Sequence record: PQ799574.1
DNA length: 64,000 bases
From: Escherichia phage vB_EcoM_Maryam
Reading direction: 5' to 3' (one strand)
The translations under genes and the position numbers were made by a program. Shown piece after piece: positions 18,738 to 40,784 of this stretch (position 1 is its first letter; each line of letters starts with the position of its first letter). Under the pieces are notes generated by a model, which had not been told where the DNA came from, ran no database searches, and saw only the letters and a program-made list of their open reading frames with translations.

Positions 18738-19676
18738 TTATTTAAATTGTTCAGTAACGTCTTCAACTACTTCATATTGGCAGGTACGCATTTTAGCATC
18801 ATTGTAATCAATCGGAATTGATACTACATCACGTGGATGTACTTTAACTTTTACAACTCGGCTGGTTGAACTGCCAAAGTGACGAATATAAGATTTAGAA
18901 CACACATGCAGACCACGAGAACAAGTTTGTGTATCATCGTCATTCACACGAGTACGCGGCATTTTAACTACTTTACCAGGACTGTTATCAAAGGTATTTG
19001 AGTGACAGTCAAAGTAATTGCTGCGAACTACTTTCCAAGCATAGAAGTAACCATCTTCTGTAATTTCAATATCGTTTGCTACCAAGAAATCAAAAAGTCG
19101 AGATACCGCTTTCTGGCTTGGGTTTTCCAGCAGATTTTCCAAGAACGGAAAATAAAATTCAAAGTTTTCGCCTTTTTCCATCGAATCAAGAATACGATCA
19201 ACCAAACCAGACCGCAATTCAATATTTTGATAGAATAAGCTTCCACCTTCAATTCGAACATCGCCGGAAATATATTTTTCAACAGCACGACGAACATTAA
19301 TTTTTTGTGCCGCTTCTTCCAGCTTATCTGCTACAAGCAGATTAAGAATTTCCTGGAAGTTTGAATGAGTATTAGGAGTTGCGTTATAAGTTACACCGTC
19401 AACAGTAATTGAAATGAATTTTTTAGATGCATTCCAAATAATGTCAGATTTAGCAACTGGAGCAATAACTGCATCGCTATTAACTTTAACTGTAATATCA
19501 CCGCTAATAGTAACTTTAGAGCGTTTAGCTTCTTCAGCATTTTTCAAAACACGACGGATTGTGTCAACCGATACATCCTTCCAATAAGCTAATTCCTGCT
19601 GAGTGTAATTACCACTTGAATACAGTTTAACAATTTCAGCTTGTTCGTTTTTGGTCAGGCATTTAATATTGTACAT
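18738..19676 (-). CDS. rIIB: rIIB protein
   Basis: 312 aa, MYNIKCLTKNEQAEIVKLYSSGNYTQQELA...; adjacent to rIIA. Confidence 0.9.
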   Translation of the reverse strand: MYNIKCLTKNEQAEIVKLYSSGNYTQQELAYWKDVSVDTIRRVLKNAEEAKRSKVTISGDITVKVNSDAVIAPVAKSDIIWNASKKFISITVDGVTYNATPNTHSNFQEILNLLVADKLEEAAQKINVRRAVEKYISGDVRIEGGSLFYQNIELRSGLVDRILDSMEKGENFEFYFPFLENLLENPSQKAVSRLFDFLVANDIEITEDGYFYAWKVVRSNYFDCHSNTFDNSPGKVVKMPRTRVNDDDTQTCSRGLHVCSKSYIRHFGSSTSRVVKVKVHPRDVVSIPIDYNDAKMRTCQYEVVEDVTEQFK

Positions 19677-36116: not shown

Positions 36117-36317
36117 ATGGTACAAAAATTAATGGCACTTGTTAATGCCATCAAAGGTAATAAAAAGCGTATAGCTTTTACTATTTCTGCTATGGTAGGA
36201 ATTTTACTCTGGAACTTTATTCTATCACCTGTTGCAATTGCACATGGTATTAATATTCCAGTAGTTACTCTTGATACATTCGTAGATTTAGCATTTGCTT
36301 TAGTTGGGTTAATTTAA
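36117..36317 (+). CDS. small membrane protein encoded on opposite strand between genes 56 and 61
   Basis: 66 aa; strong SD AAGGAGG 7 nt before ATG; two hydrophobic segments. Confidence 0.4.
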   Translation: MVQKLMALVNAIKGNKKRIAFTISAMVGILLWNFILSPVAIAHGINIPVVTLDTFVDLAFALVGLI

Positions 36318-37342
36318 ATCTTAGCATATTTAGATAACCGCATTTTAGCCATCAACCCCTGGGCAATATTATTTTTCATATATTCCATAATTTGTTCAGG
36401 GGTTGCACCTTCCTTTCTAATCATATCATTAACATCTTTTGATTTCCAGGGAGATTTATCCCAAAACATAACCCTTTCTCCTGCATCAACTAATTTAGTC
36501 ATTCGCTTAATAGTGTCAGGATGACGAGGTTCATTATCTAAAACCCACACTCGTCTATCTTTAAATGGAACAACTTCTAGGTCTAATTGACCACCCGTAA
36601 TAGCTATACCATTTTCAATAAAAAGTGAATCTATAGGTCCTTCTAGAACATATACATCACCATCTTTAACTCGTTCGACTCCATATATTTTTGTTGCCTC
36701 AGGATAAGCTTTAATGGTGATATATTTTTGAGGAGCATCTTTCTTTAATGCACGTCCTTGAAAAGACTCAGCTTTTCCATTAGCATTATAAATTGGAATA
36801 ACAAGACGAGGCTCAGAAATTTCCTTTTTGTATGTTCCCGGTGCTATGCTATTAACTAATTTAGGCCATTCGGTTGTAAACCAAAGATATTTCCATTTAT
36901 CCTTTGGAATACAACGAGCTTTTACATATTTTATAATTGGATGGTCTTCCGCCAGTTTATCTAATCTAACACATGACGGAAGAGATTTAATTATTTTCTT
37001 CTCAGGTTGCTTAGGAAGTTCTTTAGGTTTTTCTACTGGACGACTTTTACCTTTTTCTTTTCTTATTTCAAAGATATACTCACGATATAAATCAGGTTCA
37101 AACTCCTTTAAATATATTCCGATTGGTGCATGATAATTACAGTTATAACAATGAATATTTCCTTCATTATTATCACCATAATACCATCCACGAGCTTTAT
37201 TCTGGTCGGTTTTTGAATCTCCACAAACAGGACATCTAAACCGCAATTTAAAAGTTGAACTATTATTTACTTGTGTGAATTTAGGTAAATGAGCCAATGC
37301 ACGATACGCAAACTCATTATCAATCCAAGGTATTGATGACAT
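36314..37342 (-). CDS. 61: DNA primase gp61
   Basis: 342 aa; zinc ribbon CPVCGDS...CYNCNYH plus TOPRIM. Confidence 0.9.
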   Translation of the reverse strand: MSSIPWIDNEFAYRALAHLPKFTQVNNSSTFKLRFRCPVCGDSKTDQNKARGWYYGDNNEGNIHCYNCNYHAPIGIYLKEFEPDLYREYIFEIRKEKGKSRPVEKPKELPKQPEKKIIKSLPSCVRLDKLAEDHPIIKYVKARCIPKDKWKYLWFTTEWPKLVNSIAPGTYKKEISEPRLVIPIYNANGKAESFQGRALKKDAPQKYITIKAYPEATKIYGVERVKDGDVYVLEGPIDSLFIENGIAITGGQLDLEVVPFKDRRVWVLDNEPRHPDTIKRMTKLVDAGERVMFWDKSPWKSKDVNDMIRKEGATPEQIMEYMKNNIAQGLMAKMRLSKYAKI

Positions 37343-37510
37343 TTTTACTCTTCTTTTTCTTTAGATTCCTCTTTTTTCTTTTTAGGAATCTGTTCAGGAC
37401 CTTTATTTACTACAGCACCTGATGTTGTTCCAGTAGAGATATTTTCAGGATTACCACCTGAATCTCCAGCGACCATATCTTCTTTAATAAATTCTTTATA
37501 TGTTTTCATA

Positions 37511-37867
37511 TTAACCTCTATTCATAAAAGCATTAAAAATTTGGTCATCAATAGATGGCGCAGTAATATTTTCTGCATCATTTAGCAAATCATTAATTTC
37601 ATCAGATAGCATAACACATGTACCTTTATTTCCTGTAATTGTTACTGCACAATTACGAACGTTTTCTTTATCAAATTTTAGGTTAATATTTTCGTAGTGA
37701 AAATCCTTTAATGCCGAATATATCTTTAAAATGAAATTGTCTTTTACTACAATAAACCCAACCTCACTATTAAAACGCGGTTCATGGAAACTGTAATAAA
37801 CCTTTTCATCTATAAAATCGTATGAAATTTTTTCCATTTTTAAATATGAAAATTCAGAACTATACAT
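37511..37867 (-). CDS. hypothetical protein (61.1-like), shares C-terminal DDQIFNAFMN(R/K)G with next ORF
   Basis: ORF track 118 aa. Confidence 0.5.
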   Translation of the reverse strand: MYSSEFSYLKMEKISYDFIDEKVYYSFHEPRFNSEVGFIVVKDNFILKIYSALKDFHYENINLKFDKENVRNCAVTITGNKGTCVMLSDEINDLLNDAENITAPSIDDQIFNAFMNRG

Positions 37868-37868
37868 A

Positions 37869-38510
37869 TTAACCTTTATTCATAAAAGCATTAAAAATTT
37901 GATCGTCAATAGAAACTTTTACTTTAGGCTGTTCTTCAAACGGTAATTCATATCCACATATTACAATTTTGTGATCGATACCAAAATACACAGAAGCAAT
38001 ATTATTAATATTATTTTCAGTGAAATCTAAATTAACATCAATATCTTTTTGACTAACGCTCAAAGGATAATTAATACGAATAATTCGATTATCTTTAACA
38101 AAGATTCCACCGACATACTCTGTGCTGCGTTTAAAGTTTACACGTTTCCTAAATGAAAAATATTCAGGTTCTTTATGGGCTCGACTCATAGGGCTTAAAG
38201 TGTATTCCGAATATGAAATATCAAATCCTACACCTTCAATATGAGCCAAAGTGTCATGATTAAACCAATTATAATCGTATGCCAAATCCATTAAATTGTA
38301 ATATGTGAAAGGCACCGGATTAACATCATGTGTTGTACCTTTAAAATCTGCCCAGGCAACGATTTCGTTATCTTTAACAATTACAAAAATTGTGTCAATA
38401 AGATATCCACGGTTATTTTCATCAGGCGTTATATTATAACATTGTGCATCAGGAAATTTACCGTATTTAAACGGCGGATTTTTGTGCATATAATAAATCA
38501 TATTATTCAC
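37869..38510 (-). CDS. hypothetical protein (61.2-like), two internal VKDN-type repeats
   Basis: ORF track 213 aa. Confidence 0.5.
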   Translation of the reverse strand: MNNMIYYMHKNPPFKYGKFPDAQCYNITPDENNRGYLIDTIFVIVKDNEIVAWADFKGTTHDVNPVPFTYYNLMDLAYDYNWFNHDTLAHIEGVGFDISYSEYTLSPMSRAHKEPEYFSFRKRVNFKRSTEYVGGIFVKDNRIIRINYPLSVSQKDIDVNLDFTENNINNIASVYFGIDHKIVICGYELPFEEQPKVKVSIDDQIFNAFMNKG

Positions 38511-38796
38511 CTGTGATTTCGGTTACGATATTTTTGTTATTAAAGTTTTTATCGCAATACAGAACATAATTATACTGCATTACACCACCAGACTTAAGTT
38601 GTTTTTGCACTTCAGCTTTCATTTTAGGACGATCGCGCTCAACGATATTCATAATATCCGCTTCAATTTGAGTTTCAACTTCAGTCTGATCTGCAGTCAT
38701 AGACCATTCACACAAATCTTTATCATATCCTGCCATAGCAGGCTGAGCAGCACAAGAAGCCAAAGTAAAAATTGTAGCAAAAATAAATTTTTTCAT
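38503..38796 (-). CDS. sp: periplasmic Spackle-like protein
   Basis: 97 aa with signal peptide MKKFIFATIFTLASCAAQPAMA; size and position match recalled T4 sp (61.3). Confidence 0.6.
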   Translation of the reverse strand: MKKFIFATIFTLASCAAQPAMAGYDKDLCEWSMTADQTEVETQIEADIMNIVERDRPKMKAEVQKQLKSGGVMQYNYVLYCDKNFNNKNIVTEITGE

Positions 38797-38856: not shown

Positions 38857-39156
38857 CTATTTTAAAACTTCTGCGTAATCACATGTTACAAACTGTTTCT
38901 CTAGCTTAACGATTTTACGAAAATACCTTTTATACTGACGAATCTGCCTCTTCGTAGGACGTACAGCAAACTTAATAAATTCCACTCGACCAAATGGAGG
39001 ACTTTCTTCTGCTGGAATATCTAACACCAATTCCCACGTATCTGCAATAAGTGCTTTGAATTGAGTATTTTTCCTGACGTTATACGGAGTAGGTTTAAAT
39101 AAAACAATATGCATATTATCCTCGGCAATCCACTTCGCACACTTTCTTGTCATCAA
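38857..39156 (-). CDS. hypothetical protein (61.4-like)
   Basis: ORF track 99 aa. Confidence 0.45.
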   Translation of the reverse strand: MMTRKCAKWIAEDNMHIVLFKPTPYNVRKNTQFKALIADTWELVLDIPAEESPPFGRVEFIKFAVRPTKRQIRQYKRYFRKIVKLEKQFVTCDYAEVLK

Positions 39157-39298
39157 TGAAAGCTTTAACTAATGCTTTATTAACTTCAGCATATTGAGTA
39201 GTAGCCCATTGAACGTCATCTTTCATCATTGTGATTTCTTTAGTAAACATGCTTTCATTCTTAAACCACCCCATAAAAACTACCTTTACCAATTCCAT
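39116..39298 (-). CDS. dmd: Dmd-like protein (60 aa)
   Basis: 60 aa directly downstream of gene 41, as recalled for T4 dmd. Confidence 0.5.
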   Translation of the reverse strand: MELVKVVFMGWFKNESMFTKEITMMKDDVQWATTQYAEVNKALVKAFIDDKKVCEVDCRG

Positions 39299-39356: not shown

Positions 39357-40784
39357 CTAAAATTTTAATTCATTTGCCAAAGCATCTAACTGAGCTCGAG
39401 CTGATTCGTTTCTTTGATAGCGATTCTGTTCAGCCTGAATCTGTTGTGAACCTGCTACTTCACTCACTTCGGTTGGAGTAGAATCTTGTTCAATTTCTAC
39501 CCATTTTTGATTTCCTTTTTGAACACCCATCAAAAACTTATTCCACTTATTCTTATCACCATATCGTGATTTGATTTGCTTAATAAGTTGTTGTTCAGCA
39601 GCTGCTAGCTCCTCAGTTTCAATGACCGCAAGCATAAAATCAGCTGTTGCTGGAAGACCAGCAGATTCTGCAATATCGCTCATGTTAACATCGGAAGAGT
39701 CCCAAGCTTGTTTACCGACCTGTGCTGCAGTCCAAAGAACAGTTTCGGTTTCAACAGCCAGAGCACGCAATTCCTCTGCGATAGCTTTAACAGTTGTGTA
39801 ACTATTTTCTGAATAAACTCGGATGCGACAAGATTTACAAATACCCAGATAGTCGACAATAATGATTGTTGGAACAAAATTCTTTTTGAGCTTCAATTCA
39901 TTCAAGAGAGACCTGAATGTATTAGCATCTGCTCCACCAGTAGGGTACTGTTTAACGATTAAACGACCAAGAGTAGATTTCTCACGCCATTTTTCCATTT
40001 TTCCTTTATACTCAGCGTAAGAAATATGTCCATCATCAATATCGTCAAGAGAAACATCGAGCATGTTAGCATCAATACGTTTAGCACAGACTTCTTCGGC
40101 CATTTCCATGGAGATATAAAGAACGTTATGACCAAGCTGTAAATAATCCGCTGCTAATGAACACAATCCTAATGACTTACCAACGTTAACGCCAGCCATT
40201 AAAACGTTCAGTGTTCCTGTTTCAGCTCCGCCTTTTGTAATTTTATTCAAAATACGAAGTTTAAATGGAACTTTACGAGCTTTATTCATATAAGATAGCC
40301 AGCGTGCTTCGTAGTCATCCATCCAATCATGACCAACGTAGCTATCAAATGAAATTGATAATGCTTGGCGCATGATGTCAGGAATAGCACCAACATCCGG
40401 CATTTTCTTATTTCGTTTTTCCGGAGGAAGCTCAGCATTAGTTTGAATTTCGATTATTTTAGACGTAGCATTAAACATCGCCCTTTGCTGAACATATTTT
40501 TCTGTTTCTTTTACTAACCAGCTGTGGTCTTCCGGAGAATCAGCCAGTTTTGAAATAAGTGTTTTTACACCAGAATATTCTGTTTCAGTAAATGAACTAT
40601 TTTCTAATGCAACATTTAACGCATTAATAGATGGAACGCTATGGTACTCATTAACATGAGATTTAATTAATTTGAATGTATTTTTAGCTGGACCACTTTC
40701 AAAATATTCTGAATCCATATATGGCCAAACTTTTGAAAAATAAGCTTGATCAAATATAAGATGAGAAAGAATAATTTCTACCAC
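39357..40784 (-). CDS. 41: replicative DNA helicase gp41 (DnaB-like)
   Basis: 475 aa; Walker A GVNVGKS. Confidence 0.95.
   Translation of the reverse strand: MVEIILSHLIFDQAYFSKVWPYMDSEYFESGPAKNTFKLIKSHVNEYHSVPSINALNVALENSSFTETEYSGVKTLISKLADSPEDHSWLVKETEKYVQQRAMFNATSKIIEIQTNAELPPEKRNKKMPDVGAIPDIMRQALSISFDSYVGHDWMDDYEARWLSYMNKARKVPFKLRILNKITKGGAETGTLNVLMAGVNVGKSLGLCSLAADYLQLGHNVLYISMEMAEEVCAKRIDANMLDVSLDDIDDGHISYAEYKGKMEKWREKSTLGRLIVKQYPTGGADANTFRSLLNELKLKKNFVPTIIIVDYLGICKSCRIRVYSENSYTTVKAIAEELRALAVETETVLWTAAQVGKQAWDSSDVNMSDIAESAGLPATADFMLAVIETEELAAAEQQLIKQIKSRYGDKNKWNKFLMGVQKGNQKWVEIEQDSTPTEVSEVAGSQQIQAEQNRYQRNESARAQLDALANELKF

Follow-up and report, generated by a model that had tools for sequence, protein, structure and literature searches.

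Escherichia phage vB_EcoM_Maryam carries the anti-defence gene adfA (T4 gene 61.2) next to a shorter gene, here called S, which is an old paralogue of a single domain of AdfA, and both genes end in an almost identical 49-nt block. The explanation that we favour, with a probability of about 0.6, is that this block serves several purposes at once and doubles as a crossover site, the locus being found in three states in the phage population. The identities of the genes, the homology between them, the overlap of the tail with a promoter, the three-state polymorphism and the purifying selection that acts on S can be regarded as established, and the feature is real and largely explained by a known anti-defence gene, its single-domain paralogue and a multi-purpose 3' block with a mapped promoter. 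Part of this was already known, given that the paralogy is present in annotation and that Pfam files S under AdfA. A literature search did not find a description of the tail-promoter overlap, of the tail shared by three protein families or of the three-state polymorphism, which are modest additions and not a new kind of system.

The window (the whole stretch of 64,000 nt that was analysed) belongs to a Tequatrovirus, that is, a T4-like phage, and the 1.6-kb region of interest has matches in 664 GenBank phage records, with a top identity of 99.6%. The order of genes on the minus strand is gene 41 helicase, dmd, 61.4 (tifA), sp, a 210-aa ORF, a 118-aa ORF, 61.1 and gene 61 (Table 1). From sp through 61.1 one base parts each stop codon from the next start (TAA-T-ATG), and the sp stop codon is accordingly 1 nt ahead of the ATG of adfA.

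Table 1. Coordinates in the window of the genes and sequence elements discussed in the text.
Feature	Position	Strand	Remarks
Gene 61, DNA primase	36314..37342	minus	served by promoter P61
Gene 61.1, 54 aa	37345..37509	minus	start codon and ribosome-binding site within repeat copy 2
Repeat copy 2	37507..37555	minus	last 14 S codons, stop, 1-nt spacer, 61.1 ATG
Copy 2, orthologue of T4 P61	MotA box region 37527-37536; -10 TAATAT 37508-37513; start-site equivalent 37501
S (RB32ORF033c / HY01_0032 family), 118 aa	37511..37867	minus	AdfA C-terminal domain and tail
Repeat copy 1	37865..37913	minus	last 14 adfA codons, stop, 1-nt spacer, S ATG
Copy 1, second P61-like motif	MotA box region 37885-37894; -10 TAATAT 37866-37871; start-site equivalent ~37859
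adfA (T4 gene 61.2), anti-DarT factor A, 210 aa	37869..38501	minus	PF23813, phrog_3781, annotation of relatives
AdfA codon 167 (Asn)	38001..38003	minus	corresponds to RB69 AdfA position 164, by alignment
sp (spackle, 61.3)	38503..38796	minus	upstream neighbour of adfA
Gene 41, helicase	39357-40784	minus

The larger ORF matches the Pfam family PF23813 (AdfA) with 456.8 bits and over its full length (profile positions 1-211), it is assigned to phrog_3781, and relatives at ~98-99% DNA identity annotate it as 'anti-DarT factor A' or 'gp61.2' (as AdfA in PV857777). It has the two-domain architecture of the family (~210 aa), which is absent from S, and it occupies the position between sp and 61.1 that is conserved in Tevenvirinae; it is, in other words, a full-length member of the AdfA (gp61.2) family at the same locus. 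A mechanical choice of start codon (GTG at 38510) gives a product of 213 aa, and the ATG at 38501, which is the one annotated in relatives, gives 210 aa. As for the comparison with T4 61.1 and 61.2 that the preliminary description had proposed, the larger gene is 61.2 (adfA) and the smaller one is missing from T4. S stands alone in T2, which has been described as lacking adfA, and it occurs together with 61.2 in RB32, whose annotation of S already reads "similar to gp61.2".

The relationship between the two proteins goes well beyond their ends. BLASTP aligns all 118 aa of S with AdfA residues 101-213 (E = 2e-11, 35% identity), and when the 14-aa tail is left out the Smith-Waterman comparison still gives z = 6.7-7.4, with none of 2000 shuffles reaching the observed score. 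These two results, the alignment and the tail-less shuffle test, imply that the similarity is more than a few residues shared by chance, which is the outcome that the preliminary description had named as fatal to its proposal. Against PF23813, S scores 31.9 bits (the gathering cut-off is 27) and covers profile positions 113-211 only, so that it passes the Pfam threshold with the C-terminal domain and tail of AdfA but lacks the whole N-terminal domain. S is assigned to phrog_4122. Outside the repeat the bodies of the two genes are 43% identical in DNA, with synonymous sites saturated, and S-like genes are found in other genera, which together imply that the duplication is old; on alignment, S is an ancient paralogue of the C-terminal half of AdfA.

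S also behaves as a maintained gene. A tblastn search at 60% identity or more finds it in 298 phage records with the ORF intact, mostly at 95% identity or above, and it is under purifying selection (pN/pS 0.04-0.22). Its AlphaFold (AF2) model is compact and confident (pLDDT 82.8, pTM 0.71) and runs in the order five-stranded meander, helix, short strand and helix, followed by a tail helix of lower confidence. S-like proteins of 119-125 aa, with 27-48% identity to S, occur in Gaprivervirus and further lineages, and the homologues in other genera that reach 42-48% are of similar length; those more divergent than S fall short of the PF23813 cut-off with 20.7-26.1 bits, and in three of these four it is the tail by itself that matches. 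An HMM scan of 1.84 billion representative proteins added only three further S-like clusters and a spurious coiled-coil repeat protein (P0024), and a word-indexed protein search returned close relatives only. The S/AdfA family appears to be confined to T-even-like phages. Sequence searches of solved structures matched nothing, and no structural homologue that hints at a mechanism was found.

The larger protein had also been described as containing two copies of a segment with the motif VKDN. Both are present (AdfA residues 42-45 and 135-138; residues 41-44 in S), and in all three occurrences the D-N pair sits at a predicted beta-hairpin turn, within a predicted unit that runs strands, hairpin, strand and helix. 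What lacks statistical support in the sequence is a duplication within AdfA: comparison of the N-terminal with the C-terminal half gives z = 1.8 and an hhalign probability of 15% over 11 columns, and the exact 13-nt DNA match at the two VKDN sites is close to chance level by a rough estimate. An internal duplication is thus supported by predicted topology and not by sequence statistics, the profile and shuffle tests of the halves not being significant and only the predicted order of secondary structure being alike.

Both ORFs lie on the minus strand, as described, and share a C-terminal tail that ends in SIDDQIFNAFMN(R/K)G (...SIDDQIFNAFMNRG in the 118-aa product and ...SIDDQIFNAFMNKG in the larger one). 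The DNA repeat that encodes it is slightly longer than the ~40 nt given in the preliminary description, since it extends over 49 nt, of which 46 are identical (94%), with a spacing of 358 nt between copies. Each copy runs from the last 14 codons of one gene through its stop codon and a single-base spacer to the ATG of the gene that follows. The 24-nt core of the repeat occurs exactly twice in the window, as against 0.00 expected (100 shuffles). In a codon alignment of the two genes, DNA identity is 93% in the tail, compared with the 43% of the bodies, and where the two proteins have the same residue, the same codon is used for 11 of 13 residues of the tail and for 9 of the 28 of the bodies (Fisher p = 0.0025). 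With a correction for codon bias the excess is only modest (P = 0.029).

This block also matches a mapped promoter of T4. The T4 middle promoter P61, which is MotA-dependent, has its listed start site at position 19122 (Table 1 of PMC2988021, after Marshall, Sharma and Hinton, 1999). The T4 coordinates are 19130 for the start of gene 61.1 and 19132 for the end of 61.2. With transcription starting at 19122, the -10 element TAATAT is made up of the 61.2 stop codon, the spacer and the first two bases of the 61.1 ATG, and the MotA box region TTAATGCTTT coincides with codons of the tail. Repeat copy 2 occupies the same place as T4 P61, at the 3' end of the gene just ahead of 61.1, and the tail of S equals T4 P61 from -35 to -7 without differences; the tail of AdfA constitutes a second P61-like copy with one change in the spacer (AGAGG to AAAGG). 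T4 thus has the promoter-bearing block once, at the end of 61.2, whereas this phage has it twice, at the ends of adfA and of S. With respect to the MotA box (a/t)(a/t)(a/t)TGCTTtA near -30, both copies read TAATGCTTTT, in which the last base is T and not A and which is identical to the sequence of the mapped T4 promoter, and the -10 criterion (TAnnnT about 12 ± 1 bp past the box) is satisfied by TAATAT in both, at a T4-like spacing. The annotation of vB_EcoM_Lutter (MT682714) places a 27-nt promoter at both tails. A relaxed MotA pattern (TGCTTYW-N11-13-TANNNT) has 30 matches in the window, both tails among them, where 4.9 ± 2.3 are expected, a six-fold excess, and many of these matches are probably real middle promoters. 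The copy within adfA, a predicted promoter, may be active as well, and a transcript from it would begin 8 nt inside S.

The same few bases serve translation. The last two codons of the tail supply the ribosome-binding site of the next gene (AGA/AAA GGT here; the more general form (A/C)GA GGT contains GAGG), so that the 49-nt block reads at once as coding tail, promoter P61, ribosome-binding site and start codon. The near-identity of the two copies is attributed to these overlapping constraints, namely a conserved peptide, P61 and the signals that start translation of the following gene (its ribosome-binding site and ATG). The codons for N-A-F form the MotA box, the stop codon with the spacer and the 'AT' forms the -10 element and the last two codons contain the Shine-Dalgarno sequence; stacked in this way, the constraints would hold the block nearly identical while the bodies of the genes diverged. 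P61 is the promoter from which the primase gene is transcribed. A practical implication is that deletions or recodings of the 3' end of adfA may also change the transcription of primase.

The peptide encoded by the block is conserved far beyond the window. Three protein families from at least three genera carry its core, DDQIFNAFM, without variation: it is unchanged in every AdfA allele examined (T4, RB32, RB69 and 16 database clusters) and also in S and in the S-like proteins found by homology. The third family that bears the tail consists of proteins of 145 aa (phrog_8539, 86 phage records) encoded after sp in Gaprivervirus and Dhakavirus, and by sequence it has the tail alone in common with AdfA and S. 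At the level of predicted structure, Foldseek connects S, AdfA and one member of this family, the match between that member and the S model having E 2e-4 and TM 0.58. Between genera the DNA of the tail varies at third codon positions only, that is, synonymously, and the peptide is retained where the promoter motif is degraded (TGCCTTT ... TGATAT in loci L018 and L019). These two observations argue for selection on the tail peptide itself, and the invariance of the core in three families points to a specific element whose function can be tested. The two models both show the tail as a short helix of low confidence (pLDDT ~50-57) that follows a flexible linker, likewise of low confidence. A scan of IMG/VR with a degenerate tail pattern gave 16 loci, of which 15 are on large contigs (51-172 kb) that look T-even-like and one is on a 6.7-kb fragment.

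In the DK-13-like genomes of Gaprivervirus (L008 and L013), the 33 nt that encode DDQIFNAFMKR show no DNA difference between the two tandem tails, while these differ at four synonymous sites in EAWsc9 (L007) and at three in L014; this pattern hints at occasional gene conversion between paralogous tails.

The arrangement of the locus differs from one phage to another. Junction-specific searches of the phage collection find the tandem arrangement of the window (AdfA-to-S junction) in 157 records, the T4 type with AdfA only (AdfA-to-61.1 junction) in 173 and the T2 type with S only (sp-to-S junction) in 141, and the sum of the first and the last, 298, equals the number of S-bearing records found by tblastn. 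It is known that T4 recombines at very short homologies (PMC9391042). Since the block is repeated in a highly recombinogenic phage, a crossover between its copies would drop exactly one 358-nt unit, and three states are found in the population: AdfA only, S only and both. Removing one unit in silico gives exactly the AdfA-only arrangement, and the product is colinear with a natural locus of that type whose allele resembles the one in the window (799 versus 799 nt, no gaps, 93.5% identity). Besides, the base directly ahead of the stop codon varies with the gene downstream (AGAGGT before 61.1; AAAGGT or AGAGAT before S), as expected if exchanges happen inside the block. It is therefore plausible that the repeat is a crossover site, and the comparison of loci leads us to infer that the repeats are actual sites of recombination.

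The T2-type junction is less straightforward. It was considered as the product of a simple crossover or microhomology deletion between sp and S, and this was rejected because it retains the tail-end-like AGAGGTTAGTATG and gives no clean fit. The 12 nt that separate the sp stop codon from the ATG of S in T2-type phages (TTAGAGGTTAGT; L004, T2, ~2486-2503) resemble the end of the AdfA tail (AGAGGTTAATATG), and they may be a vestige of a deleted adfA, though one that does not fit a simple crossover.

A known parallel is provided by the promoter-early stem-loop (PeSL) repeats, which mediate modular shuffling in T4-type phages (PMC2839356; PMC4122927). As in PeSL cassettes, small accessory genes of a variable region are bordered by a regulatory repeat, and which of the genes a phage has or lacks is consistent with recombination at repeats. 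PeSL elements, however, consist of an intergenic early promoter and a terminator stem-loop, whereas the present block is a middle promoter embedded in coding sequence and combined with a conserved peptide tail. Between 37200 and 39400 no terminator-like hairpins were found and promoter-like sites are at chance level, so the repeat does not qualify as a PeSL.

Other accounts of the repeat must be weighed against that of a multi-purpose block doubling as crossover site. One could argue that the common tail arose by chance or as a low-complexity effect, given that the genome is AT-rich and that a rough estimate puts short repeats, like the 13-nt match at VKDN, at about the frequency predicted by chance, but the two occurrences of the 24-nt core, the BLASTP E value and the homology that persists without the tail refute this notion, which deserves practically no credence. 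A recent tandem duplication, with the repeat as its footprint and S as a decaying, functionless partial copy, would agree with two adjacent genes in the same orientation, with the restriction of S to the C-terminal half of AdfA and with 3' ends that are 94% identical. It is nevertheless very improbable, because the bodies have diverged to 43% DNA identity with saturated synonymous sites and because Gaprivervirus and further lineages have S-like genes of equal length that are 27-48% identical; as for decay, S is intact in its 298 records and frequent frameshifts or stops are not seen, its pN/pS is low and its predicted fold is compact and confident. The partial duplication or module exchange suggested in the preliminary description thus stands in outline, insofar as S is a paralogue of AdfA's C-terminal half and the 145-aa family bears the tail module as well; it does not stand as an explanation of the repeat, since the duplication is ancient and the near-identity of the copies does not come from a recent one.

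More consideration is due to the idea that the block is conserved purely as DNA, as P61 and translation-initiation region, and that the peptide tail merely comes along without a protein function. The last ~30 nt do hold the start of the next gene and its Shine-Dalgarno sequence together with the MotA box and the -10 element, and within Tequatrovirus even synonymous sites are nearly fixed. On the other hand, DDQIFNAFM is invariant in RB69, Gaprivervirus and Dhakavirus despite differences in the DNA at third positions, those phages show an altered core of the MotA box (TGCATTT, TGCCTTC) or have lost the -10 element (TGATAT), and the stretch S-I-D-D-Q-I-F, which is outside the core promoter, is equally conserved; for these reasons the idea seems unlikely. 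It is also rather unlikely, and more so than conservation as DNA alone, that S, with no target of its own, serves AdfA as an accessory subunit or a regulator, for instance in a heteromer held together by the common tail or domain. The two proteins have a domain and a tail in common, their genes adjoin with 1-nt stop/start spacing and they occur together in 157 records, yet 141 records, T2 included, have S without AdfA and 173 have AdfA without S, which indicates that each of the two is maintained alone.

With regard to function, few phage inhibitors of DNA ADP-ribosylating toxins have been characterised, and AdfA is among them. It binds DarT1, a DNA ADP-ribosyltransferase toxin (LeRoux et al., 2022, as reported in PMC11257639), and at position 164 of RB69 AdfA a His neutralises DarT1 and an Arg does not (PMC11257639). 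Two findings in the literature speak against a role versus the DarTG1 tested: the deletion of adfA in T4 has no phenotype (PMC11257639), and T2 without adfN turns sensitive to DarTG1 (PMC11257639) even though it keeps S. From the latter it follows that S does not neutralise that DarT1 at native levels. The surrounding region, with dmd, tifA (61.4) and adfA, has been proposed to be an anti-TA island (PMC9391042); S lies in the same block between genes 41 and 61, whose other genes are flagged as candidate anti-toxins by the same source, although S itself is not in T4.

In contrast to the characterised alleles, with their neutralising His or inactive Arg, the AdfA of the window has Asn ('NNINNIASVY') at the DarT1-specificity position, and hence not the His of the neutralising allele. 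Among 16 AdfA clusters, Asn at this position is restricted to the window's own 90% cluster (P0006, 94 member sequences), the remaining 15 having His or Arg, so that it represents a third natural variant. S also has Asn at the aligned site. The position sits in a predicted helix (162-173) and falls in the C-terminal domain of AdfA, the part that S retains. From the retention of this specificity domain and from the setting in a proposed anti-TA island, a role as inhibitor is the most likely one for S, which is probably a toxin-binding inhibitor with a specificity unlike that of AdfA. Present beside adfA or in its place in ~300 sequenced T-even phages, T2 included, S is a candidate for a second specificity.

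AdfA alleles appear mosaic in the alignment (window 37872-38501). Their first ~60 residues fall into two haplotypes, an RB69-like one ('MIYYMHKNPPFKYGKFPDAQCYNIT') and a T4-like one ('MLYQMHKCKDTYKYKGAQCYIIN'), and the pairing of these with varied C-terminal variants suggests recombination inside the gene.

As to what the tail does, a possible but doubtful reading is that DDQIFNAFM is a portable functional module, perhaps a helix that docks onto some conserved partner (a replication protein, or a surface that DarT-family toxins have in common), to which exchangeable specificity domains are joined (those of AdfA, S and the 145-aa family), and that the DNA encoding it is a recombination junction that bears a promoter. 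If this were true, T-even phages could add, drop or swap anti-toxin cassettes and leave the expression of primase undisturbed. Clamp-binding and SSB-tip-like motifs were also considered for the tail; its pattern fits neither, and that idea was dropped.

Some minor observations concern the neighbourhood. A PADLOC scan gave no matches. The genes tifA (61.4, Pfam DUF7279) and dmd lie directly upstream (38857-39298), and ahead of dmd there is an early-promoter-like site (TTTACA-17-TATAGT with TG, 39356-39328), in agreement with the early operon of dmd and tifA that has been published. A plus-strand ORF of 66 aa (36117-36317) is situated between gene 56 (dCTPase) and gene 61 (primase) and overlaps the end of the latter by 4 nt; relatives label it RB69ORF029w-like or 'holin family protein', and T4 has dam between genes 56 and 61, without an annotated counterpart of this ORF. 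Finally, the labels given to small genes at this locus include some apparent misannotations. The 145-aa tail-bearing gene of EAWsc9 (L007 2062-2499) is called a 'serine/threonine protein kinase' where Pfam gives no kinase match, and several records name one small ORF here a 'major capsid domain-containing protein'.
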